From: a virus
Taxonomy: Duplodnaviria > Caudoviricetes
IMG/VR virus record: IMGVR_UViG_3300020045_004729
Coordinates: 1 to 32,014 of that record
DNA: 32,014 nt
Strand: one strand, 5' to 3'
Part shown: positions 1 to 31,212 of the stretch, piece by piece
How positions within the stretch are numbered: position 1 is the stretch's first letter
Layout of the letters: each line of letters opens with the position of its first letter
Position numbers and translations under genes: made by a program
Notes under the pieces: generated by a model
Seen by the model: only the letters and a program-made list of their open reading frames with translations
Database searches by the model: none
Told to the model about the DNA's origin: nothing

Positions 1-2860
1 CAACTTTTGCTTGAGTATTAGAAGCTGTGCCAACAGGTAGCTGTCTTACAAATCCTGCTCCAGAAGAATCTCCAGTCATATAGGCGTGGATATCCGCTCC
101 TGATCCTGTACCAGAGTTTCTGCTGGCTGAAATGTATAATTTATAAACACCCGAACTCGCTAACGTATTGGCAGGTATTAAAATATCAACTAAATCAGTT
201 TGAGAAGTCGTTCCTGTGTGAGTTACTGGCGTTAATTGTTTAATTATAGTTGTTGCGCCTGTAACTATAGCAGCTTGAACAAAAGCAGTATTGGCAATCG
301 TGCCGTTATTTGTTCCAACAGGTTGTGTCGATACTGTGCTTGTCTGCTCCACTTCATCCGTAGTAGCGTTATAAGTCAAAAACAAGAAACTTTCTGCGCT
401 GGCTGTAGGGGTTGTGGTTAGTTTTAAAGTTCCTGAAACACTAGGATTATGTAAACTTGGGTTTTTTGATTGTTGGAAACCGTTATTAAATTCACTTGAA
501 ATTATTTTGGCGATTGTCATATTCGAAATTCCACTTAAATCAGAATGCGGGTGCAAATTGTCAGGACAAAAAAAGTTTAATCTACTGTCCTTGTGAATCC
601 AAGTACCTACTGGATACACAAGAGCTTCGTCTGTATTTGCTAAAACTTGGTGCGGATTAGCATAAGTGATGTAATCGGAATAATTCCAATTTCTTTGCGG
701 ACCATAATCATTAGTTGAAAAAGTACCACCCCCTAAATCCGTGAATGTATATCCGCTATTTTGCCAAATGTAACTTGAATTCCAGTAACCTTGTGTATTA
801 ATTGAAATAGAGTTTATAGTCATTAAATCAGCCAAAGAAACTAAAGGAATTTGCCAATAATCTGCTACTTTTCTTTGCGAATCGTACAGCTTATCTAAAT
901 CAGTTTCGCCTTTTCTATAGTGAGTAAGCATCACTATTTTATTACGTGGGTCAGATTCGTAAATTTTTCTAATAATATAGTTCATTGCCCCACTGTAGTA
1001 CATCCTTTCAGTTGCCGAACCTTGAGCGGGTACGTCCTGACCGTCACTCATTGCGACTTTAAACATATCGTTAAAACCGTGGTCTAAAACGAATATTTTT
1101 GCGCCATCATTAGTCAAATAATTAGCTATCAATTTTCTTTCAAAAGAGTAATCTCGAAGTTGTTCTTTTGTTTTTGGACAAGTCGAAGTTAAACTTCCAG
1201 CATCTTGAAATTTAGTGTAAATAGTTGCCCAGTTGTCAAAAATATAGTCTTTTTCAGTTATAGTTTGTCCTAATGATGAGTAAAATCCAAAGCTACCTTG
1301 TATATTATTTCCAATACCTAAAGGGTCTGTCCCTGAATCATAAGCAGATGGTATTCCAGTTGAAATCCTCGAGCCCCCAACACCCTCATTTGATACTGTT
1401 GCACCTGTTAATTGAGCCACCATCGATGGGTATTTGTTTTGACCAGTGTAGCCATCTATGGTTACGGTGTCAGGAGTTCCAGTAGGTATCGAAGTTCCAA
1501 ACCAAGCAATATTTTGTCCTTTGAACGGTTGTGCTAATTTTTGCAGATTATAATTATCCGAATCACTAGAAACTATCTTTTCAAAAAATATATCAATATC
1601 CCCACCATAACTTGCACAATAAACGAACAGGGTTTCACTGGTTGCTACCGCTGTTAAATCCACAATATATTCAGTACCAACTACTGTTTCAAAATTAGTC
1701 CAAATAGTTTGCTGATTATTGTCCGCTGGTAAAGCGTCTCTTAATTGAACGGTAAAAAAACCCGCTGCATTCCCAACATCGTTAGTTTTCATTTTAAACC
1801 TAAATCGATAAGATTGACCGACAACCAAAGGCTCGGTTAAGGGTATCTTTAGATTATCGTAAAGTACAATATCAGTTGGATTAGTTGACATTATATCAAC
1901 ATAAGAAGTAGTTGAGTTTGGTTTTAAATAATCAGGTAATTGAGTCGTGTCTATCTCTGAATCTGAATTCAATCCAGCTATCCCGTTTGGCGTGTTTTTG
2001 GCATTATTTACACCGTCAACAGTAACATACTTAAATCCCGTACCATCGACTGCTAAAGAGTTTTGTTTATTTGACTTAACTTCATACTCTCCCGCCAAAA
2101 CCGTAAAAGGCACTGGTAAAACTGTTCGAACTGGTTCACTTCCCCCAAACTGTAATTGATAAACAGGGTCTGAACCACCACTAATACGGTTAGCGTAGGT
2201 TTTTATTACGATTCTATCCGTACTATCAAATGCCCCATTATCCCAAATTCCCGAAGCAGAAAATTCCGCATAAGTGCCGTTAACAACTTCTCCACTTACA
2301 CTTGAGGTACAGATTAGAGTTTCAGTCCCTGCACTATCTCGGTGGTAAACCTCAAAGTAAAATTGTGCCGTTCCCGAACCGCTTACTTTTCGAATGTTTC
2401 CGTAAGTTGTAACGTTAAAAACACCTGGATTACCAGTTAAAACCCCTGCATCTGAAATCCTTTGCGAAATCAATTGTGCAATTCCTGTAATTGCTGGTGT
2501 AGATACGTCAACCGCTGTTGTGTTGTATCGTGGATCGTGAATATCCTTGACTAAAACTACATATCCACCAACATCACTCGCTGTGGTCGTTGGGTATAGC
2601 GTTAAGTTGGCTGGTAGGTCTGAAATGTTTAGTTTTAACGCTAAACTGTCATTCATCGCTTGTGTAGTTGCTATGTAAGCAGCTGGTATTTTTCCAATTA
2701 CCCCAGTATTACCAAACGTTGCTATAAAAGATGGAGTGGTAACTGTTTGAAGCGTGTCTATCGGAATCTTCATTCCATAATCTAATGGCTGTTCCTGTCC
2801 CGTGCTGGTTTGCCCCAGCATCCACAACGGCAATAGTAAAAATAAAAGTAGTTTTTTCAT
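1..2860 (-). CDS. Tailspike/tail-fibre-like protein with N-terminal signal peptide, CBM-like domain and SGNH/GDSL esterase domain (3'-truncated by window edge, >=953 aa)
   Basis: Absent from the ORF track; translated by hand from ATG 2860: MKKLLLFLLLPLWMLG|QTSTGQEQ. Frame confirmed at several points. SGNH blocks WFGTSIPTG (~1500), NEGVGGS, DHGFND (1067-1084), CPDNLHPH (545-568). Fibre motifs KNTPNGIAGLNSDSEIDTTQLP and TNNGTIANTAFVQAA. Confidence 0.88.
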   Translation of the reverse strand, partial: MKKLLLFLLLPLWMLGQTSTGQEQPLDYGMKIPIDTLQTVTTPSFIATFGNTGVIGKIPAAYIATTQAMNDSLALKLNISDLPANLTLYPTTTASDVGGYVVLVKDIHDPRYNTTAVDVSTPAITGIAQLISQRISDAGVLTGNPGVFNVTTYGNIRKVSGSGTAQFYFEVYHRDSAGTETLICTSSVSGEVVNGTYAEFSASGIWDNGAFDSTDRIVIKTYANRISGGSDPVYQLQFGGSEPVRTVLPVPFTVLAGEYEVKSNKQNSLAVDGTGFKYVTVDGVNNAKNTPNGIAGLNSDSEIDTTQLPDYLKPNSTTSYVDIMSTNPTDIVLYDNLKIPLTEPLVVGQSYRFRFKMKTNDVGNAAGFFTVQLRDALPADNNQQTIWTNFETVVGTEYIVDLTAVATSETLFVYCASYGGDIDIFFEKIVSSDSDNYNLQKLAQPFKGQNIAWFGTSIPTGTPDTVTIDGYTGQNKYPSMVAQLTGATVSNEGVGGSRISTGIPSAYDSGTDPLGIGNNIQGSFGFYSSLGQTITEKDYIFDNWATIYTKFQDAGSLTSTCPKTKEQLRDYSFERKLIANYLTNDGAKIFVLDHGFNDMFKVAMSDGQDVPAQGSATERMYYSGAMNYIIRKIYESDPRNKIVMLTHYRKGETDLDKLYDSQRKVADYWQIPLVSLADLMTINSISINTQGYWNSSYIWQNSGYTFTDLGGGTFSTNDYGPQRNWNYSDYITYANPHQVLANTDEALVYPVGTWIHKDSRLNFFCPDNLHPHSDLSGISNMTIAKIISSEFNNGFQQSKNPSLHNPSVSGTLKLTTTPTASAESFLFLTYNATTDEVEQTSTVSTQPVGTNNGTIANTAFVQAAIVTGATTIIKQLTPVTHTGTTSQTDLVDILIPANTLASSGVYKLYISASRNSGTGSGADIHAYMTGDSSGAGFVRQLPVGTASNTQAKV

Positions 2861-2875
2861 AGTGTAAAATTTATT

Positions 2876-2883
2876 CAAATATA
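2876..2883 (-). promoter_or_regulatory. Bacteroidota primary-sigma -7 element TATATTTG for the tailspike gene
   Basis: Exact TAnnTTTG match 15 nt upstream of ATG 2860, directly after a terminator hairpin. Confidence 0.7.
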
Positions 2884-2915
2884 CAAAAATTCCCTAAACT
2901 TTCGAATAGGGAATT
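2884..2915 (-). terminator. Intrinsic terminator closing the accessory operon
   Basis: AATTCCCTA-N10-TAGGGAATT followed by TTTG, 10 nt after the stop at 2926. Confidence 0.7.
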
Positions 2916-2925
2916 AATTTTGTTG

Positions 2926-3273
2926 TTATGGTTTGAATTTTTCTTTTCCTATTTTTATCCATTCAATAAGCGCGTTTTCTTTAAACAAAAGAACATCAGA
3001 ATACGGCGTACATCCTTTTACTTCTTCATCGGTAAATTCTCCGTTATCGTCGCCGATAGAATTTATTATTTTGTCGAAATGAACTCCTTTTTCTGTTACA
3101 TCAATTGTCCATTCACCGCCATAAGTAATAATGCCTTTTGTGCCGTCGGAACATTTGAATTTTATTCCTTTTTGACATTTAGAATAACATCCATATTCAT
3201 CGGAATAATTCAAACCATCTATACTTATTCCATCGTCGGAATATCCGTAAATTCTTGTTTTTGTGTTTTTCAT
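2926..3273 (-). CDS. Hypothetical acidic protein, 115 aa
   Basis: ORF track; ATGA overlap with upstream small ORF. Confidence 0.8.
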   Translation of the reverse strand: MKNTKTRIYGYSDDGISIDGLNYSDEYGCYSKCQKGIKFKCSDGTKGIITYGGEWTIDVTEKGVHFDKIINSIGDDNGEFTDEEVKGCTPYSDVLLFKENALIEWIKIGKEKFKP

Positions 3274-3440
3274 ACTTCCATTTTTTTACTAATTATTTTC
3301 TCTTCCAACAATCCCGCAACAACATCCGCCTTAACCCAAGCGTATATTTGCCCGAAGTTATTTTCTGCCATTTTCAAAGCTTCTTCCATTGTAACGGGAT
3401 AGCCTTTAATTTCTGAAACTATTTGTTGTAGGTTTTTCAT
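3270..3440 (-). CDS. Small hypothetical protein, 56 aa (MKNLQQIVSEIKGYPVTMEEAL...KKMEV)
   Basis: Hand translation; fills the gap exactly with ATGA overlaps at both ends. Confidence 0.75.
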   Translation of the reverse strand: MKNLQQIVSEIKGYPVTMEEALKMAENNFGQIYAWVKADVVAGLLEEKIISKKMEV

Positions 3441-3889
3441 AATCCGATTTGTTTTTGAGCGGTTGGAGTTAGTTCAAGATTGTATTTTACGAGGTCTTCG
3501 ATTGTTTTAGGTGACTCTATGTTGTTGTGATTTGACGAAAAATAACCATTTGTACAATAATAAAAATAAAATTTATCATCGTTAAAAAATAAATCTAAAA
3601 TTGTTTTTTCATCGTCCCACCATTTGCGAGAAAACCCCTCAAACAAACATCTTTCTTTTGCTTGTTGGTATTCGTCATTTATTTCTAAATTGGAAGTGTA
3701 TTTATTTGGCTCTTCCAAAACCACCCAAACCCCGTCAACCAATTTGCACGGCACGAATTGCCAAATTTCTAGGGGTTGTTTTCCGAATTCTACACGTTTG
3801 CGGTGTAGTTGCCATTTTTGAGAATCGTTCAAATCTCCTTTATTTTCTAACCAATCCGAATGCTCTGCTATCGATGTTAAATTTTTCAT
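3437..3889 (-). CDS. Hypothetical phage protein, 150 aa
   Basis: ORF track; ATGA-coupled on both sides. Confidence 0.8.
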   Translation of the reverse strand: MKNLTSIAEHSDWLENKGDLNDSQKWQLHRKRVEFGKQPLEIWQFVPCKLVDGVWVVLEEPNKYTSNLEINDEYQQAKERCLFEGFSRKWWDDEKTILDLFFNDDKFYFYYCTNGYFSSNHNNIESPKTIEDLVKYNLELTPTAQKQIGL

Positions 3890-4902
3890 ACTATATCAAT
3901 TTTGTATCCTAATTCTTTTTCAATTTCGGATTGTGTCATTTTTTTTGGCTGGATAATTTCTGCCCAGATGCCGTTTTGAAGAACAGCATTACCGCCAATT
4001 TCCAAAATATTAAACTTTTTGCTATAACGCATATCATCTGTTTTAATTTCTCTTTGCTGTTTTATAGTTCCAAATTCGCAAACAACACCTTTTTTATACC
4101 CTCTCTTCTTCGCTTCCTCAATCAAAGCTACTTCAACTTCTTGCGGAGTGGCTTTTGTCCAGTTTTTCGTATCTTCAAAAGACCATCCTTTGTTTCCGTT
4201 TGAACACCATTTATTTCTATTGCCATAATGAGAGAATCCGTATGCAGTTTTTTTGCTTAAATCCGTAATGAATACTAATGATTCAAATCCTTTTTCTATG
4301 CACTTATACCACTTACCTACAACCAACTCCTTTTTAAAAACCTCTGGAAAAACAGATTTCAAATGACTGGTTAAATTGCTTCTTAATCCTGTATAGTTAT
4401 CGTTTCCGAATTTCTCTGACAACTCCAAAACCTGCTCATTTGTAATCTCGAATTTAGGCGTTTTGTAAGTTAGTATTTTTGCGTAGCCGTTAAATTCTTC
4501 CCAAAGTAATAATTCTCTGTATTCAGAATCTTTATTTTGTCTATAATTTTTTCCATCAAAATAAATACCTAACTTTTTTGTATTTATTTTGTATTTTGTA
4601 TTTCCAAGAGGCGATTGCATCTTTTTTGCATCCTTAAAACGCTCCTTAACTTCTTCAAGTGTTGGTGTAGTTTCAATCCCACACGCATCCAAAAATATTT
4701 TAGCGTTGAATGTTTCGTGGATTTCGTCTGTTTCAGACCTATCAAAAGTGTTCCCGTTGGTAATTGATTTATCTTCAAAAAGAACTATGTAGGTACTTTT
4801 TTCGAATTTACCAAGCGAAAAAACTCTATACTCTTTCGGAATCCTGTCCTTAATCGAATCCCAATTTTCCTGTGTGCATTTCATTGCCATTGCTTTTTTC
4901 AT
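3886..4902 (-). CDS. Hypothetical mosaic phage protein, 338 aa
   Basis: ORF track; ends in KKMTQSEIEKELGYKIDIV, a tag I recall from the C-termini of many unrelated phage proteins. Confidence 0.85.
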   Translation of the reverse strand: MKKAMAMKCTQENWDSIKDRIPKEYRVFSLGKFEKSTYIVLFEDKSITNGNTFDRSETDEIHETFNAKIFLDACGIETTPTLEEVKERFKDAKKMQSPLGNTKYKINTKKLGIYFDGKNYRQNKDSEYRELLLWEEFNGYAKILTYKTPKFEITNEQVLELSEKFGNDNYTGLRSNLTSHLKSVFPEVFKKELVVGKWYKCIEKGFESLVFITDLSKKTAYGFSHYGNRNKWCSNGNKGWSFEDTKNWTKATPQEVEVALIEEAKKRGYKKGVVCEFGTIKQQREIKTDDMRYSKKFNILEIGGNAVLQNGIWAEIIQPKKMTQSEIEKELGYKIDIV

Positions 4903-5024
4903 AATTTCTCTTCTTTTTTTAGTTGTTCAATTGTTCTTTGTTTTGCGTATTCCCTGACTTCTTTGATAACTTTTGGATGGCATTGCACGCTTATTTGAAT
5001 GTTGCCGTTTTTTGATGGTTTCAT
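4899..5024 (-). CDS. Small basic protein, 41 aa, ribbon-helix-helix-like
   Basis: Hand translation MKPSKNGNIQISVQCHPKVIKEVREYAKQRTIEQLKKEEKL; alternating beta ribbon (IQISVQC) then amphipathic helix; ATGA overlap with 4902. Confidence 0.6.
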   Translation of the reverse strand: MKPSKNGNIQISVQCHPKVIKEVREYAKQRTIEQLKKEEKL

Positions 5025-5031
5025 AGGTTAT

Positions 5032-5310
5032 TTAAATTAGTATTTCCATTCTAAATTCTACAACTCCTTCTTCTCTTAACTGCCACCTGTGTTCTTCATC
5101 TTCCATACTTTTAGGAATTGAATTATCAAATGGATTAATCGCTTCAAAGTCTACCAATTGTTTTAATTTTTCAACTGGCAATTCACTTAAAGACTTAATT
5201 ATAAATTCTTTTTCTACCCTGTCTTTGTAGTATTCAAATACTTCTGGCGCGACTTTAGTATTTCCTTGAAACTTTTGTTTGTCACCTGGGCGTAATTCTT
5301 TTGTTTCCAT
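5032..5310 (-). CDS. Hypothetical acidic protein, 92 aa, first gene of accessory operon
   Basis: ORF track; A-rich start region TAGAAATTATG. Confidence 0.8.
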   Translation of the reverse strand: METKELRPGDKQKFQGNTKVAPEVFEYYKDRVEKEFIIKSLSELPVEKLKQLVDFEAINPFDNSIPKSMEDEEHRWQLREEGVVEFRMEILI

Positions 5311-5338
5311 AATTTCTATTTGTTTTTAAATTAAAGTA

Positions 5339-5370
5339 CAAACGTACGAAATAAATCGTACGAAAACAAA
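5339..5370 (-). promoter_or_regulatory. Consensus Bacteroidota promoter TTTG-N20-TACGTTTG overlapped by two CGTACG palindromes
   Basis: -33 TTTG at 5367-5370; -7 at 5339-5346; CGTACG at 5343-5348 and 5357-5362. Confidence 0.8.
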
Positions 5371-5399
5371 AAAAAAACACCCCCGATTATGAGAGTGTT
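5368..5399 (-). terminator. Intrinsic terminator after tail gene block
   Basis: AACACUCUC-AUAAUC-GGGGGUGUU (G-U pairs fit the minus strand) followed by a long U run. Confidence 0.8.
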
Positions 5400-5420
5400 G
5401 GTTATTTGGAATTAGAATGG

Positions 5421-6206
5421 TTATAAATAGTAATCTATATAAACCCTTTGTCCTGTAGTTATTGCTTTTTTAAAGGTTACAGTAGTACCTGATTGAGTGA
5501 ATGTCGTCTGGTCGCTTGTGAAATATGGGTCTTCTAAATGTTGCACACCATCGTTTATCCATCCTTTAAAAGCTATCGCCCCTGCTGGTAATTCATAGTC
5601 CTGTCCTAATCCTGCGTAGCGGATTGAGTTTACAGAAATACCTGTAATTCCGTTTATAGCGCCTTGTGTAGCTGTAGATATTGGTAAGTGTAACGGATCA
5701 ATAGGAATGTAAGCAGTACCTATATTGTTTGCTATTAATAATTTATTTGGAGTAATCGAATTAGGCATGTCCGATAATTGAACGCTTGATGTCACAATTA
5801 CCAAATCAATAGTCGTAATTTGCAATTCATCAGCGGACACTGCTAAAATCTTGTTTGCTCTACCTAAATAACTTCCGAAAGTGTCAAGTAAATTTATGAA
5901 TCTATCAACTCCAGAACCACCCCCGCTAGTTAGCCAATCAAAAAAACCTAAAGCGGTTAATTTATCAAACAAATCTCTTGAACTCGTTGGAACACTAGAA
6001 ACCGCTCCGTTTACCAGTGTAATATCCGAATAAATTACATTCTGTTGCTTTATTAAATTAGCGCCATTTGAGGTTTTAAAATGAGCAAAATCTCCAACCG
6101 TCAACAAATCATTTCGAGTGTTTATGATTTCGTTTGAAACATCGCTGTTTAGAACAAAACTAAATTGCTCGTTATCTTCCTTTGTTATCGTTAGTAGATT
6201 TGCCAT
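5421..6206 (-). CDS. Tail fibre adaptor/branching protein, no signal peptide
   Basis: Gly linker GGGSG, fibre-type repeat FINLLDTFGSYLGRANKILAV, LPISTATQGAIN motif, C-terminal small beta-sandwich (GQDYEL..WINDG..FTQSGTTVTF..GQRVYIDY). Confidence 0.6.
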   Translation of the reverse strand: MANLLTITKEDNEQFSFVLNSDVSNEIINTRNDLLTVGDFAHFKTSNGANLIKQQNVIYSDITLVNGAVSSVPTSSRDLFDKLTALGFFDWLTSGGGSGVDRFINLLDTFGSYLGRANKILAVSADELQITTIDLVIVTSSVQLSDMPNSITPNKLLIANNIGTAYIPIDPLHLPISTATQGAINGITGISVNSIRYAGLGQDYELPAGAIAFKGWINDGVQHLEDPYFTSDQTTFTQSGTTVTFKKAITTGQRVYIDYYL

Positions 6207-6209
6207 TTT

Positions 6210-6767
6210 TTATAATTTCATTATAAACAACGATACAATGTAAGGTTGTAAGTTTTTATTTGTTCCTGAAACCCCAGCAGAATCAGTATAAGCCGTGCCT
6301 AAAGAATTGGTTTCAATCTCTTTTCCGATGTATCTAATATTTGTAGTTCCCGAGCCACTAGACCCTGATTGATCCGCTATAATGTGGTTATGAGTAACAA
6401 GTACCGCATCTGCACTACCTCCAATAGCACCAAGTGTTGGGTAATTACTGTCCCATTGCAACGAAACTCGTCCGCTTCTATTTCTAGTACCGTTGTTTCC
6501 GTTGCAAATTGCCCAACCTAAACGCTCGTTAATTCCCAATCCAGTTGAATCGAAATTAGCGGTCATATAAGCATTGGTAACATCGATTTCTTTGATATCT
6601 CCAGTTTGCGCTGTTCCATCTGCTATAGAATTAAGTACTGTACGGACTTTTAAAGCCGTATTTGGAACACCAGTTGCAATTGCGTCAATTTGAACTTGAA
6701 TAGCAGAACGGGTTTGTCCTTGCATTGTAGCAACCGACAGTAAAAATAATAATAGTAATTTTTTCAT
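6210..6767 (-). CDS. Short tail fibre / tail-collar domain protein with N-terminal signal peptide
   Basis: Collar motifs GDIK, GWAICNG.NGT.N..GR, HxH (THNH), C-terminal NLQPYIVSLFIMKL; N-terminus MKKLLLLFLLSVATMQG|QT. Confidence 0.85.
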   Translation of the reverse strand: MKKLLLLFLLSVATMQGQTRSAIQVQIDAIATGVPNTALKVRTVLNSIADGTAQTGDIKEIDVTNAYMTANFDSTGLGINERLGWAICNGNNGTRNRSGRVSLQWDSNYPTLGAIGGSADAVLVTHNHIIADQSGSSGSGTTNIRYIGKEIETNSLGTAYTDSAGVSGTNKNLQPYIVSLFIMKL

Positions 6768-6782
6768 ATTGATTTATTTTTA

Positions 6783-7289
6783 TTAATTAAAAACACGAAT
6801 CTCTATAGGTAAATTGGTAAAAACGGCATCTGAAAGTACGTTAGAGTCATTATAAACAAGTAATGTCCCTTGATTAACTCCATTGCCACCATTTGTACTA
6901 TTGAATTGAAAATTAGCTTTTCCGATACCACCCTCTACAACTCCTCTGTAAAAAAAAGTTTTCCCAATTGTAAATGCGCCAGTTGATGAAAAAACATAAA
7001 CTCCAGTTCCGGTAACTGAAAATGTTACTGGGGAATATAGATTTTCATTTATCACTGTCACAGATGCAGAACTACCTGTTTGCGTTAAAATTGCGTGGTA
7101 TGATTTGTAAGGTATTTGCTGGTCAATATAATCAACAATATCTTTCATATTGTTTCCTACATTCGATTTACTAATACTTCCTGCTCCAGTTTTATTGGTA
7201 ATATCGGTGTCAATTTGTGCTTTTAAAGCCGTTGAAGTTTGTCCGTAAATTGATGCGGAAAACAATAAAAATAAAAGTATTTTTTTCAT
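6783..7289 (-). CDS. Small tail-associated protein with N-terminal signal peptide, 168 aa (start revised from 7337)
   Basis: ATG 7289 follows an A-rich start region and removes the overlap with the upstream gene; MKKILLFLLFSASIYG|QTSTALKAQID; helical N-domain plus beta-rich C-domain. Confidence 0.75.
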   Translation of the reverse strand: MKKILLFLLFSASIYGQTSTALKAQIDTDITNKTGAGSISKSNVGNNMKDIVDYIDQQIPYKSYHAILTQTGSSASVTVINENLYSPVTFSVTGTGVYVFSSTGAFTIGKTFFYRGVVEGGIGKANFQFNSTNGGNGVNQGTLLVYNDSNVLSDAVFTNLPIEIRVFN

Positions 7290-7305: not shown

Positions 7306-8184
7306 TTATTCAAATTCGGTTGCAAATTCATCCGCAAATGTTCCGCTCGCTGGAGGTGATGGTGTTTGATTATAAATCAACCAATCGTTTGCATCAAAAT
7401 CATTGCTGTCAAAATCGCCTAAACTAGTGGTAATTGGTTTGTAAATATCGTTATAATCCAGCGATAATTGATAGGTAAAAGTACCAAAATTTTCTTGATT
7501 TACAACTTTTGGGATTTCAGGTGCTTCAAAAATATTTGCACGCACATTTTCAACATATAAATAAGGTACTGTCAAAATATCAGACATTTTAATCAATCCC
7601 GAAATAGGCATTAATTCCGTTTCGTAAACCTCGGTATTGTTTACCTTAATTTCAGCTGTTACGGTTCTTTTGTCTGATTGTTGGTAGTATTGAGTTAATT
7701 CTTTGGTTTGCATTTCTTGTCTAAACCAAGTTGTTAAAGAAATGCTTTCGTAAGAGTCTGTGAATCTTTTTTTATAAGTGAATTGTGTTGTTTTTTCGCT
7801 TTCAATATTTGTTAAACGAAAAGGAGTTGAGTAAAAATCTTCGCCTAATGCTTGAGTTATTTTTAAGTAAACTAAATCCCAGCCAGTATCTAAATCGATA
7901 TTCGTTAAACTCCAATATAATTGTTTGTTTCCGTTAACTGAATCAGTTAAACTGTCAACCATAAAAGAATCAGTAATATCTCCTAGTAATTTTCCGCACA
8001 AAGAGTAAACTAAAACCGTCCAATCTTCCAATTCTATACCGTTTGGCGTATCTGTTTTTTGAACGTAAGGATTTATATTATTTGGCAACAATTGAACACC
8101 AGTAAATAAATACTGGGTATTTCTAGGCGAGTTTTTAAAATACATCGCTTCGTTTAGTGTTCTGAAAAGATTGATTATTGCCAT
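7306..8184 (-). CDS. Tail tip/baseplate protein with acidic-aromatic C-terminal peptides
   Basis: Second gene after tape measure; beta-rich; ends GDFDSNDFDANDW...GTFADEFATEFE. Confidence 0.65.
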   Translation of the reverse strand: MAIINLFRTLNEAMYFKNSPRNTQYLFTGVQLLPNNINPYVQKTDTPNGIELEDWTVLVYSLCGKLLGDITDSFMVDSLTDSVNGNKQLYWSLTNIDLDTGWDLVYLKITQALGEDFYSTPFRLTNIESEKTTQFTYKKRFTDSYESISLTTWFRQEMQTKELTQYYQQSDKRTVTAEIKVNNTEVYETELMPISGLIKMSDILTVPYLYVENVRANIFEAPEIPKVVNQENFGTFTYQLSLDYNDIYKPITTSLGDFDSNDFDANDWLIYNQTPSPPASGTFADEFATEFE

Positions 8185-8188
8185 TGCA

Positions 8189-8196
8189 CAAATATA
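8189..8196 (-). promoter_or_regulatory. -7 element TATATTTG 4 nt upstream of ATG 8184
   Basis: TTATATATTTGTGCAATGGCA in the 22-nt intergenic gap. Confidence 0.55.
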
Positions 8197-8206
8197 ATAA
8201 AAAAAA

Positions 8207-10831
8207 CTACAACAAATCCAGCCAATTTTTTAATTCGGTAATTGACGTAGCGTTTACGCCATTCACACTTATTTTATCCCAAAATACCCCGTTATAAAGC
8301 CTTTGCATTTGATTATCAAACAGAACAATCTTATTACTTTCTTCGGTGTATTTCAATGCTTTAATTCTAGTTTCTTCGTTAATAACAATATCGTTTGCTT
8401 CTTTTCTAATTGTCATAAATGCAGTTTCGTACTTTTCTTGACCAGAAATAGTCAATTCTCTATTCGCATTATTGTAACTCATATTTATTGGATAGACTTT
8501 TAAAACCCGAATGTTATTGTCGATAGTTCTAATAAATCCTCTTTGGGTTCTGATTCGGTATTGCAAAGCTACGAAATCGCTAAATTCAAAATTTGCGAAA
8601 ATCATTTCATTGTACATAAAAGGTGTTACGATTGGATTGTCAGGAATGAAATCTTCTTTTTCAACTGTTGCCAAACCGTTATAACTCATCGAGCATTCTC
8701 CGTTGTTTTTGTAAAAAGTGTTTTTTATCGGTTTTAGTTTGTTGTAAATATTAACTGTTGCTAAAAAGCTGTTCCAATAATTTTGAATATTTCTTTTTAC
8801 TGAATATTTTAAATTACTGTATTTTTCTGGATTCAGTAAATTCAAAACATACAAAAACCCCTCATCGCTTCTGCTTGTTAATTCTGCGTATGTTTTTTTA
8901 ATTTCGTAAATATACGTAGTAGTTCGTATTCCGTCATTACTACTCGAAATAGTTCCTGCGCTGGTTTTTTGTAGTTGCAATTCTGTATTGGTTACTGATG
9001 AAACATTGTAAATCCCTTTATTTTTGTCAGGATGCAATATTTCAAAAGTAGTGTTTGGTTGTATTCCTAAAACGATAAAATTTAAACTTCCGTTGTTTTT
9101 TAGAATCAAAAAAGTACCGTCAAAAGAATGTTGTAATTCTGTATTTTCAGTAAATTTTTGATCGTTGACGGTTTCAATCGTGTCTATACAAAAGATATTA
9201 TCATCATCCTGGGTCGAGGTGTCTTCTGAAACTGTCAAAGCTTTTTCTTGTTGTTGAGAAATAAGCATCGCATCACGTGTCCATTCTACATTAGCTTCTT
9301 TTGAGTTCTCAACTTTTTTATTCAAAGGTGTCCAAATACTTTCTCCGTGAATGGTATCAGCAGAATTTGCGACTTCATTTTCTTTTAACGATTGATAATT
9401 TTTGTACTTAAACTTGAATTCATTCAAACAATATTTTGGATTTGGCGATTTATTCAATTCTGAAAACTGAACATTGTCAAAAAACCAACTTTCAGTTTTT
9501 GTATAGAAATCTTCTTCAATACCTATAAATATACGACCATCTACTTGAGTTTCATCGTCAGCGTAAAGTTCTCCATTTATCGACTTCCAAATATCATCCC
9601 AAGAAACATAAAAAGGCTTATTTGTAATGTTTCTTAATAGATTTCCATTAAGCAAAACGTTATCGTAAAATTCCCCTCCGAAATCATATCTTGGTGCGTA
9701 AATATCTAGTCCTGAAATTGATTTAGCCACTTGACGCATAACGTCTATTAATCGAAAAACAGGAGTTATCGAGTTATAAGATATTGATTCGGCTTCTACA
9801 TTTATTTTAGTGCCTTTTTCTATTTTAGTAAATACTTCGAATTTTGGTGTAGAAAATGGAGCATCACTAGCCGACTGTCTTACTTCGAATTCAAAAAACA
9901 TCCAAACCGATTCAGACCTTAACACGCTGCCGATGTTTATTTCTGGTAAATCTCCCGAAAAAATATAGCTTTGATGTTCTGTTTTATAAGTTTTCAGTAA
10001 ATTATATTCTGTAGAGTTTTGCCATGTCAAGCCTTTGAATATTTTTAAGTTAAAATTCACATATCCATTACCGCCATCATCAACGTCAGTTTCGAATTTT
10101 ATATTCAAATCTTTTATATTGATTTTGACGTTTGAAAGATTGCTACTAGCTAGAAGTATTTTAAAATTACTGTCTGTAAAATTTCTATCCTGAAAGTCAA
10201 GCTTGTTGGTGTCTTCGAAAAAAGTGTAACTGTCTTTTACGTCGCTTTTTACCAAATTAGCCACAGGATTAACTTGATACCAAGTTGTATTCGTCCCTCC
10301 TACTGCGTCAAGATTTCTATCATAATCCAAAACTTGTTCCCAAGTGCTTTTTTGTATCGATGGTTTCGCTTTCAAAAACATATTGATAGGTCGCAAAGGC
10401 GTTATTACATTTCCGTCAATATCAGTATTCGAAAGTAAATCCACTTTTGTTTCTGAACGTCTTTTGAATATTTGCAACGATCCAACCGTAATTGTTTTAA
10501 AGTCGAAATAAGTCAAATCATCGGTTTCGGCTGTTGAAAAATCGATTTCATTCAAATATTCCGTGCCATCTTCTAAAACTATAGATAATTTTACATCGGC
10601 TTCAAATCCGTAAAAATCATTATAGTAAAATATCATCGTCAATATTTTCTCGTGGCGTTGGTCGGTAAATCTAAATTGATTTTCTCCACCGTTCAAAGCA
10701 ATATCCCGACCGTGACCGTTTTCTTTTTGATTCAAATTAAAATCTACATCACCGTATCCGATAGGTTCGTTAATGTAGATTTTTTTACCCGGTTGCTCTG
10801 AAAAAATCAGATAAAATTTTTCGTTAGCCAT
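8207..10831 (-). CDS. Large tail tip/baseplate hub protein, 874 aa
   Basis: Immediately after tape measure gene (TAATG overlap); called from size and synteny. Confidence 0.65.
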   Translation of the reverse strand: MANEKFYLIFSEQPGKKIYINEPIGYGDVDFNLNQKENGHGRDIALNGGENQFRFTDQRHEKILTMIFYYNDFYGFEADVKLSIVLEDGTEYLNEIDFSTAETDDLTYFDFKTITVGSLQIFKRRSETKVDLLSNTDIDGNVITPLRPINMFLKAKPSIQKSTWEQVLDYDRNLDAVGGTNTTWYQVNPVANLVKSDVKDSYTFFEDTNKLDFQDRNFTDSNFKILLASSNLSNVKINIKDLNIKFETDVDDGGNGYVNFNLKIFKGLTWQNSTEYNLLKTYKTEHQSYIFSGDLPEINIGSVLRSESVWMFFEFEVRQSASDAPFSTPKFEVFTKIEKGTKINVEAESISYNSITPVFRLIDVMRQVAKSISGLDIYAPRYDFGGEFYDNVLLNGNLLRNITNKPFYVSWDDIWKSINGELYADDETQVDGRIFIGIEEDFYTKTESWFFDNVQFSELNKSPNPKYCLNEFKFKYKNYQSLKENEVANSADTIHGESIWTPLNKKVENSKEANVEWTRDAMLISQQQEKALTVSEDTSTQDDDNIFCIDTIETVNDQKFTENTELQHSFDGTFLILKNNGSLNFIVLGIQPNTTFEILHPDKNKGIYNVSSVTNTELQLQKTSAGTISSSNDGIRTTTYIYEIKKTYAELTSRSDEGFLYVLNLLNPEKYSNLKYSVKRNIQNYWNSFLATVNIYNKLKPIKNTFYKNNGECSMSYNGLATVEKEDFIPDNPIVTPFMYNEMIFANFEFSDFVALQYRIRTQRGFIRTIDNNIRVLKVYPINMSYNNANRELTISGQEKYETAFMTIRKEANDIVINEETRIKALKYTEESNKIVLFDNQMQRLYNGVFWDKISVNGVNATSITELKNWLDLL

Positions 10832-14769: not shown

Positions 14770-14777
14770 CAAATATA
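14770..14777 (-). promoter_or_regulatory. -7 element TATATTTG
   Basis: Exact match directly after the terminator U-tract, 17 nt before ATG 14752. Confidence 0.65.
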
Positions 14778-18541: not shown

Positions 18542-19360
18542 TTAATTTCTTCTTCTTTTACTCATTTGAAGTGATTTCTCGGCTTCTATTTCTTCAAGTG
18601 ATTTCTCGGCTTGTTTATTGTTTGTGATTTGCCCAGTAGATGAATTGCTTCCAAAAACTACTAAACTTGATTCTCTAACATTTTTCGCTTCTTCAATAGC
18701 AAAAAAGTAGTAAATATAATCAAATTCTTCTTTGTTAGCTATAACTGGATAATATTTATCATAATTAGCTTTAAAAACCGAATCATCGGGATCATTGCTA
18801 TCTAAACAAAGAGAGAACTTCACATATTGCATCCTTACACTTCCTTCTATTGAATCTCCACTATCTAGCCAGTCTTTTACAGTTTCACATTTTACTTGGT
18901 TCTTTGGCACTTTATAAATCAAAACCTCTGTGTCTCCTTCGTATGGTTTCCCAATTAAAGAAAAAGGAACTTTTGCCGTGAACATTTCAATATGTTCTTT
19001 TCTGACAACAACTGATTTTATTTCTAAATCATGATCCGTTACTAAATAATTTTTACCTTGTTGCTCTTTGATTGTTTTCTTCCAAATGCCGTCTAAATGC
19101 AAATCTTCATGACTATCTAATACTTTTGTAGAATTAACCGCAATGTAGTAAAAGTTATCATCAATCTTAATACCTTTCAATTGGTCTGTAAATTTCAATA
19201 AATCCAAAGATTTACAGGTTACAGAAACGCCTTTGTCACAAGATTTTTGTATCTGTGATTTTTTAGCATCTGAAATAAATTCAAGATTATCTTTTAAATC
19301 TTTGAATAATTCCTCCTTTGTTTCAAATGTTTTATCTGGAAAATAAATTGATTTTATCAT
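18542..19360 (-). CDS. Prohead maturation protease (HK97-type)
   Basis: LDSHEDLH, LVTDHD, EGSVRMQY, RESSLVVFGSN; lies between portal and capsid. Confidence 0.75.
   Translation of the reverse strand: MIKSIYFPDKTFETKEELFKDLKDNLEFISDAKKSQIQKSCDKGVSVTCKSLDLLKFTDQLKGIKIDDNFYYIAVNSTKVLDSHEDLHLDGIWKKTIKEQQGKNYLVTDHDLEIKSVVVRKEHIEMFTAKVPFSLIGKPYEGDTEVLIYKVPKNQVKCETVKDWLDSGDSIEGSVRMQYVKFSLCLDSNDPDDSVFKANYDKYYPVIANKEEFDYIYYFFAIEEAKNVRESSLVVFGSNSSTGQITNNKQAEKSLEEIEAEKSLQMSKRRRN
18569..18612. repeat. 17-bp direct repeat (aagtgatttctcggctt x2, 27-bp period) encoding AEKSL twice
   Basis: Copies at 18569-18585 and 18596-18612. Confidence 0.85.
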
Positions 19361-20700: not shown

Positions 20701-20708
20701 CAAATATA
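20701..20708 (-). promoter_or_regulatory. -7 element TATATTTG upstream of portal
   Basis: Exact match in the terL-portal gap, 16 nt before ATG. Confidence 0.6.
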
Positions 20709-30578: not shown

Positions 30579-30784
30579 AATTTATTCATTTTTGATTCAA
30601 TCGTTATTTCTGTAGCCATCAGAGAAAAATACAAAATACTATGTATATAATCTTCTTGATATTCGTTATAAAACTGCTTTCTACCTATTATTTTAGCGGG
30701 TAGAATTCCCTCTTTACGCACAACTTCTCTAACCCGTTGCCAAGCTATACCACACTCTCTAGCTATTTGATTTATAGATTTCAT
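30575..30784 (-). CDS. HTH DNA-binding protein, 69 aa
   Basis: SINQIARECGIAWQRVREVV plus wing GRKQFY. Confidence 0.75.
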   Translation of the reverse strand: MKSINQIARECGIAWQRVREVVRKEGILPAKIIGRKQFYNEYQEDYIHSILYFSLMATEITIESKMNKL

Positions 30785-31212
30785 AACTGAAATCCCAATC
30801 TAATTCCCCAGCCAATTTTCGACTGCGTACCCGTGTTTTTCGCTACCCAATCATTATAAACACGACCACCAATAAATAGCTTTTCGGTTAATTTTTTATC
30901 AACTCCATATTCCAAACCAAATACTCCTGCAGGTTGTCCGTGAATTTTTCCAAGTCGAATTCCGAAATGATTTATCCATTGATCGTCGTAACTGTCAGAA
31001 ATATTAATTCCAACTCCGGCGACAATTTTATCAATTCCGAATCCTGCACGGATGTACAAGTTTCTCGATGTTTCAATTTCAACTCCATCGTTTCCGATGC
31101 CGATGTGAAATGATTGATTGTCTTTGATGTGTATTTGCGATAGTGCGCAAGTGGATGTTAGCAGCGCAATCCATAATAAGAATGCTAGTGCGAGGTCTTT
31201 TAGTGTTTTCAT
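30781..31212 (-). CDS. Secreted small outer-membrane beta-barrel protein, 143 aa (start revised from 31233)
   Basis: Signal peptide MKTLKDLALAFLLWIALLTSTCALS|Q; about 8 Gly/aromatic alternating strands; terminal strand WGIRLGFQL. Confidence 0.7.
   Translation of the reverse strand: MKTLKDLALAFLLWIALLTSTCALSQIHIKDNQSFHIGIGNDGVEIETSRNLYIRAGFGIDKIVAGVGINISDSYDDQWINHFGIRLGKIHGQPAGVFGLEYGVDKKLTEKLFIGGRVYNDWVAKNTGTQSKIGWGIRLGFQL

Follow-up and report, generated by a model that had tools for sequence, protein, structure and literature searches.

Predicted Sec leaders on three tail appendage proteins of a siphovirus and a candidate joint for proposed late docking

Tailed phages, in the textbook account, complete their particles in the cytoplasm. 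Inoviruses (filamentous phages), whose coat proteins use signal peptides, are extruded without lysis, and the tailspikes of P22 are cytoplasmic proteins that attach unaided to finished heads. What, then, are Sec leaders doing on three tail-module proteins of a siphovirus? The virus is uncultured and known from a linear record, IMGVR_UViG_3300020045_004729, all 32,014 nucleotides of which were analysed (the window; estimated completeness 79%). Its minus-strand gene order is terminase, portal region, HK97-type capsid, tail tube, tape measure (13494), tip genes (10831 and 8184), g7289, g6767, g6206, four inserted genes and g2860, the genes being named by their start positions. An earlier note on this DNA had proposed that g7289, g6767 and g2860 are exported fibre or spike proteins that join particles at lysis or act from the envelope. 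On the comparisons of sequence and gene order described here, we put at roughly 60% the probability that these three appendage proteins are exported to the periplasm and docked on the finished tail at lysis.

Leaders and leaderless orthologs

Leaders were sought with a rule set of our own (not SignalP) that asks for a basic n-region, a hydrophobic h-region and a small residue followed by Gln. Four of the 36 minus-strand open reading frames (ORFs) were positive: g7289 (MKKILLFLLFSASIYG, then Q), g6767 (MKKLLLLFLLSVATMQG, then Q), g2860 (MKKLLLFLLLPLWMLG, then Q) and g31212 in the early region. The leaders of g7289, g6767 and g2860 are all of the Bacteroidota type, ending in Gly directly before Gln, and upstream of each of the three ATGs is an A-rich stretch with A at −3. 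By the same scan g10831, g8184 and g6206 have no leader, and none was found in related loci among 55 tips, 59 g8184 homologs, 48 tape measures, 23 tail tubes and 63 distinct anchors related to g6206. The starts, leaders and coordinates given for the three genes in the earlier note are confirmed, and its statement that the neighbouring genes at 10831, 8184 and 6206 lack a signal peptide extends to their homologs. The similar DNA that it reported among the leaders proved to be background: they agree pairwise at 29–32 of 48 bases, and comparison with 44 leaders from other phages gives a median of 28–30 of 48, so recent duplication within the window was rejected.

In Bacteroidota, signal peptidase I (SPase I) cleaves Sec leaders to expose a Gln, which a periplasm-facing cyclase turns into stabilizing pyroglutamate (excerpts of PMC5837995 and PMC10653852), a Q-rule that, averaged over Bacteroidetes species, 71% of SPase I substrates follow (PMC5837995, excerpt). 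The three window proteins share with these substrates the basic n-region, the hydrophobic core, the small residue at −1 and the Gln at +1; they differ in being phage tail-module proteins with leaderless orthologs, whereas the excerpts describe host proteins. The phage host very probably belongs to the Flavobacteriaceae, because the 48 cultured records that match the tip gene are from Flavobacterium (46) and Olleya (two) phages (identity about 24–28% in the 40 listed), and because a locus of closely similar architecture (L100) lies in a Flavobacterium genome bin.

No predictor is needed to place the predicted cleavage site, since leaderless orthologs start at the position of the Gln. Among g6767 homologs (best 120 of 413) a hydrophobic leader is present in 56, with Gln next in 56 of 56, and absent from 64; in the family alignment the Gln column is the start-Met column of the leaderless forms, as it is for g7289 and g2860. 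The g7289 set (n = 12, self included) comprises five homologs with the leader and seven without; leaderless orthologs are 62–73% identical, and five of them are 152 residues long, the predicted mature length. Homologs of g2860 (query residues 1–300, best 120 of 177) carry the leader in 55 cases and are fused to one of two recognized anchors in 22, and five stand-alone leaderless forms start 1–3 residues from the Gln position. The residue at −1 is G, A or S in 49 of 49 selected leaders of tail genes. Because each family has leaderless orthologs, export appears to be optional and not required for function, and the cytoplasmic and the exported route would both yield working phages.

The leader seems to be exchanged as a unit. 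With 117 mature g6767 proteins (three of the 120, with a different or truncated end, were left out), a quick tree implies 28 changes of leader state, and in seven of eight sister pairs the first 40 residues are 48–70% alike and the rest 81–96%. When the first 42 residues alone are used, the tree has ten leader changes, two of them forced, and the nearest neighbour is of the same class for 103 of 117 proteins, compared with 34 changes and 70 of 117 for the remaining part. The leader therefore tracks the first 42 residues and not the rest, which suggests that it travels as a 5′ cassette and that most switches are recombination events, by which leader and first ~40 residues would move together among phages. 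Many independent gains were rejected on the same evidence.

Anchor domain, docking motif and cultured relatives

The 63 homologs of the fibre anchor g6206 occur in two forms, 35 split and 21 fused, with seven cut or unclear. In the fused form, counted in complete cases, the anchor makes up the N-terminal part of a long fibre that has no leader; the split form, as in the window, stands alone and has an extra end domain. A leader-bearing large gene lies within six ORFs behind the anchor in 31 of 35 split loci and in two of 21 fused loci (Fisher p = 3.5e-9; 13/2 against 2/14 after grouping at 70% identity, p = 5e-5), values to be read as upper bounds on significance since the loci are related, and two of the fused loci end early. 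In the listed loci the leader-bearing gene is usually the sole large spike ahead of the lysis genes. A second leader-bearing gene, which lacks the motif described next, follows the spike in L028, L067, L089, L162 and L193. The leader of the collar protein g6767 showed no link to anchor type (7 of 33 split, 3 of 12 fused).

Directly behind the predicted cleavage site of g2860 is a motif of about 40 residues that we term the docking motif. Each of the 37 proteins that carry it is encoded behind an anchor with the extra C-terminal domain (five of these proteins are outside the training set), and fused anchors have it in no case; a conserved N-terminal module on the spike is thus tied to a domain of the anchor, as in branched tailspike complexes. 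The leader accompanies the motif in 34 of the 37 proteins and is missing from three. The pair recurs with several anchor N-termini that are unrelated to each other, among them those of 11b-like siphoviruses and one on a phage contig from a Flavobacterium genome. The shared fibre module of g2860 recurs inside leaderless anchor-fused fibres at 73–75% identity and sits behind many anchors. The 11b-like siphoviruses include four split anchors, with a leader-bearing spike directly behind three of these, and nine anchors that are fused or cut. On inspection only, myovirus-like prophages of Chitinophagaceae and relatives show leader-bearing genes behind a short anchor that lacks a leader in L103, L104, L108, L110, L112 and L114, and long leaderless fibres instead in L102, L107 and L109.

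A model of the anchor suggests what the extra domain may do. Compared with 48,161 chains, residues 193–261 of g6206 matched best residues 265–333 of TSP4 of phage CBA120 (Z 7.9, root-mean-square deviation 2.0 Å, 61 aligned) and next TSP4 187–250 (Z 7.2, about 2 Å), TSP4 providing the top two of three matches. A single-sequence model of g6206 reached a predicted local distance difference test (pLDDT) score of 33, Foldseek against the PDB gave nothing at E 0.001, and atlas searches returned, at a cut-off of at least 0.9, only unnamed viral clusters; nor did g6206 or the N-terminal module of g2860 find a match among cultured phages. The XD domains of CBA120 TSP4 mediate tailspike binding (PMC8825819, abstract). 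By analogy, we infer that the N-terminus of the mature spike may bind the TSP4-like domain of the anchor. The window resembles CBA120 in having a trimeric-type anchor, a small end β-sandwich and a separate enzymatic spike predicted to dock; it differs in that its anchor has one such domain and not three, in being a siphovirus, and in the Sec leaders of the predicted docking partners, a feature on which the CBA120 abstract is silent (PMC8825819).

Leader-bearing tail proteins also occur in two cultured Cellulophaga phages. All three of gp085–087 of the podovirus phi18:3 (NC_021794) have leaders and are annotated in RefSeq as structural from tandem mass spectrometry (MS/MS). In the siphovirus phi10:1 (NC_021802), which has tail genes related to those of the 11b-like loci, gp091–094 are leader-bearing and MS/MS-annotated and gp095 has a leader and no MS/MS annotation; gp091–095 are consecutive (L187, 41847-48878), lie behind a short leaderless structural gene, gp090, and include five of the six leaders found among 62 ORFs in 50 kb of this genome. 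Since gp093 and gp094 begin almost like gp086 and gp087 of phi18:3, the cassette is common to a siphovirus and a podovirus. These tail-module proteins have the same leader type as those of the window, and seven of the eight are MS/MS-annotated, which would add support to export followed by late joining; they differ in that none of them matches the window's three proteins, its anchor or the docking motif in sequence, and their records omit the leaders.

The appendage proteins and their setting

The coordinates of the main features are collected in the table.

Table. Features of the tail module in the window (strand and basis as found)
Feature	Coordinates	Strand	Description	Basis
g10831 and g8184	7306..10831	-	Core tail-tip genes without leader	g10831: phrog_15220 virion structural protein, E 3.7e-22; leader in 0/55 and 0/59 homologs
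g7289	6783..7289	-	168 residues; leader 7242-7289, N-terminal helical module, C-terminal domain	Leader scan, orthologs
g6767	6210..6767	-	185 residues; leader 6717-6767, short HxH fibre of collar/needle type	phrog_8469 tail fibre, E 1.2e-5
g6206	5421..6206	-	261 residues; leaderless fibre anchor, stand-alone here	63 distinct homologs, leader in none
C-terminal β-sandwich of g6206	5424..5642	-	Residues ~189-261; in stand-alone anchors only; predicted docking domain	Model, pLDDT ~70-90
Inserted genes	2926-5310	-	Four unrelated genes between anchor g6206 and spike g2860	Similar insertion in relative L162
Hairpin then TATATTTG	2876..2915	-	Upstream of g2860; TATATTTG itself 2876-2883	
g2860	1..2860	-	>953 residues (contig end cuts gene); leader 2813-2860, docking motif, shared fibre module, SGNH esterase-like domain, fibre repeats	
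Docking motif of g2860	2678..2812	-	~40 residues right behind predicted cleavage site; predicted partner of anchor C-terminal domain	Alignment A3
SGNH/GDSL-like domain of g2860	548..1501	-	GTSI (455), GVGGSR (493), LDHGFND (592), DNLHP (767)	PF13472 and motifs

The product of g7289 is likely a small tail appendage protein: its C-terminal domain recurs at the ends of large fibres and spikes, and gp37 of phage 11b starts with its N-terminal module. In g6767 the HxH motif (H126/H128) is near-invariant across 34 aligned sequences, PF21939 (Gp10_C) is matched by homologs just above the cut-off, and the family profile matches residues 142–186 of C24 (PDB 6OV6; E 8.3e-5), whose collar motif and HxH metal site, those of a T4 gp37-tip-like collar fibre, are present. 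[quoted passage not shown] Apparently broken g6767 homologs, split into short ORFs, were seen in L037 (9825-10381) and L078 (9959).

We regard g2860 as the likely main receptor-binding spike. The earlier note had already called it a fibre gene; the leader and the fibre motifs (NGIAGL at residue 292, TAFVQAA at 858) are there, as is the HxH that it noted in the collar gene, and the correction needed is that the contig end cuts the gene and that four inserted genes separate it from g6206. PF13472 is weak in g2860 itself (E 0.0017, below the cut-off) and clear in its close homolog P0122 (E 7e-13), and the four tabulated motifs are ones that we take to be the SGNH Ser, Gly, Asn and Asp-x-x-His blocks. 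The domain is thus likely, on sequence grounds, to be a polysaccharide O-acetyl esterase; in relatives of g2860, pectate-lyase-like or other enzyme domains replace it.

A complete relative, L162, has a similar insertion at the same place (7814-9438), which includes a homolog of g4902, and in other relatives insertions are frequent between the g10831 and g8184 homologs. Upstream of g2860, TATATTTG matches what we take to be the −7 promoter element of Bacteroidota. On the minus strand it stands between structural-module genes at 8189-8196 (upstream of g8184), 14770-14777, 20701-20708 and 2876-2883, and since the pattern occurs 30 times on the coding strand and 29 times on the other, a match alone is weak.

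The early gene with the fourth Q-rule-type leader, g31212 (30781-31212, minus strand), encodes 143 residues with a β-strand-like run at the end and a terminal FQL, features suggestive of a small outer-membrane protein; it has no match in Pfam, PHROG or NCBIfam. Elsewhere on the minus strand a 272-residue gene without a Pfam or PHROG match lies between portal and capsid (18542-19360), the usual place of the prohead protease, and a C5 cytosine methyltransferase gene (PF00145; 28952-30058) lies upstream of helicase and primase-like genes.

Proposed export and late docking, and the alternatives

We propose that head, tail and the leaderless anchor g6206 would be built in the cytoplasm while g7289, g6767 and g2860 are exported through the host Sec pathway, where, if they follow the Q-rule, SPase I would cleave them and the Gln would become pyroglutamate. 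The spike would presumably trimerize in the periplasm. Holin lesions would then open the inner membrane, particles and periplasmic pool would mix, and the mature spike N-terminus may dock on the TSP4-like domain of the anchor. The window's own lysis genes are missing; endolysins of relatives have no leader or anchor flagged by the scan and adjoin small membrane proteins and a lipoprotein, which suggests that the holin lesions are large.

Several observations weigh against this proposal. The earlier note had held that homologs lacking the leader would speak against export, and such homologs do occur in all three families (64 of 120 for g6767, seven of 12 for g7289 and the stand-alone forms of g2860), which bears out that objection in part. 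Its idea of export and late joining stands as the best-supported reading, given the anchor and docking pattern and the MS/MS annotations, with export as an option only. Four of the 35 split systems have a leaderless partner, three of these with the docking motif. The Z scores of 7.9 and 7.2 fall short of 8, the value from which the tool counts a match as clear, and lie in a range that possibly reflects just a common arrangement. An in-frame ATG lies three codons ahead of the Gln in g6767 and g2860 (there is none in g7289). The seven MS/MS-annotated leader proteins have no BLAST or profile match to the window's three and could have co-purified with the virions, and the tail genes scanned in 11b, Harreka_1, mumin6-1, phi18:1, lotta8-1 and elemoE have no leader.

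Nor do the proteins reveal why they should be exported. The frequency of the host O-glycosylation motif, which we took to be D(S/T)(A/I/L/V/M/T), relative to shuffled expectation is 0.37 and 0.66 with the leader and 0.35 and 0.63 without (in g2860, six seen, 4.9 expected), and cysteines per 100 residues are 0.64 with the leader versus 0.62 without, and 0.38 versus 0.33. These figures also count against the proposal; O-glycosylation was rejected as a reason for export because the motif is depleted in both classes, and disulphide need because cysteine content is equal, leaving the periplasmic modification suggested in the earlier note without support. Type IX secretion cargo was rejected too: no Pfam or NCBIfam match to a C-terminal sorting domain was found in g7289, g6767 or 31 of 31 leader-bearing relatives, the end of g2860 being outside the contig. 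A tyrosine integrase is absent from two complete split-type relatives and present in two of three fused-type ones, numbers too few to conclude from. Our guess at the likeliest gain is that an esterase spike pre-placed at the surface polysaccharide would strip the dying cell's receptor before arming the progeny; escape from cytoplasmic sensors, raised in the earlier note, may be another.

Export might instead be leaky, a cytoplasmic fraction (left by fast trimer folding, late saturation of Sec or an occasional internal start) arming particles as usual and the exported fraction serving as an envelope decoy or receptor-destroying enzyme. Leaderless orthologs work, two window genes have the ATG at −3, and the presence of leader-bearing proteins in MS/MS-annotated virions would be explained without a new assembly route. 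The leaders are, on the other hand, strongly hydrophobic, and Gln is kept at +1 in 56 of 56. A conserved dual start was rejected: of the 49 tail genes with a leader, only four, including two of the window, have an ATG near the cleavage site (GTG or TTG in ten, no start codon in 35). We consider this dual fate unlikely. The same start-codon counts, with the absence of an ATG from g7289, tell against the idea that the leader is untranslated, or is an uncleaved hydrophobic docking helix, for which the ATG in the other two genes could be cited; the tripartite form, the G, A or S at −1 in every selected leader and the Gln in every unselected one point to signal peptides, leaderless partners show that docking needs no hydrophobic stretch, and that idea is very improbable.

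Somewhat less likely than a dual fate is that leader-bearing forms are no longer virion parts and act in the periplasm or at the surface, masking or de-acetylating the receptor for superinfection exclusion or debris release. The esterase-like domain of g2860, its own promoter-like site and the reading of Q-rule genes in Porphyromonas prophages as envelope modifiers (PMC10367356, excerpt) would fit such a role; the leader on the large gene behind 31 of 35 split anchors, in the listed loci mostly the one large spike to precede the lysis genes, the retention of docking motif and anchor domain together and the seven MS/MS-annotated virion proteins of two cultured phages argue for virion parts. It is still more doubtful that the genes were acquired from secreted fibre-like proteins of the host, as the earlier note had offered as an alternative, with the leaders as tolerated leftovers. 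Bdellovibrio MAT fibres, bacterial phage-like fibres with signal peptides (PMC10769870, excerpt), provide a precedent, and we found no benefit of export and a leader that is freely exchanged. A host chromosomal origin was rejected because the docking motif occurs in two of 301 Flavobacterium genomes, both times in phage regions; in addition, the longest contig among the best 120 g2860 homologs is below 80 kb, anchors never carry a leader while N-terminal modules of several different kinds do, and the 17 loci read of 26 fetched from genomes for the g6767 family are prophage-like. A leftover leader would in any case still export its protein, so recruitment concerns origin and not route.

Exported tail fibres of tailed phages were not described in the searched full-text literature, which was judged by titles and abstract starts and excluded supplements and most subscription journals. 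The nearest printed remark on the route concerns five Q-rule genes in prophages of Porphyromonas gingivalis, phage genes with the same kind of signal peptide that are, in the excerpt, of unknown function, read as outer-membrane modifiers and not assigned to tail fibres (PMC10367356). Bdellovibrio MAT fibres are likewise trimeric phage-like fibres behind a signal peptide, and differ in being chromosomal surface adhesins of a predator and not virion parts (PMC10769870, excerpt). The component parts are thus of known kinds, and the assembly route, if real, would be new.

We give slightly better than even odds to the wider proposal that Bacteroidota tailed phages use a two-compartment assembly, in which fibres staged in the periplasm make particles infectious only when the pools meet at lysis, and in which a portable joint of anchor C-terminal domain, leader and 40-residue motif spreads the route among lineages. 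The locus contributes a defined candidate joint as well as pairs of orthologs that differ by the leader cassette, and such natural pairs, with and without the leader, make the benefit of export directly testable. If the proposal is true, leader-bearing phage genes now usually read as morons or envelope modifiers would have to be annotated differently, and the host's Sec system, its signal peptidase and its glutaminyl cyclase would count among the factors in phage production. Morphogenesis would span two compartments, and intracellular particles would remain unarmed until the membrane opens.

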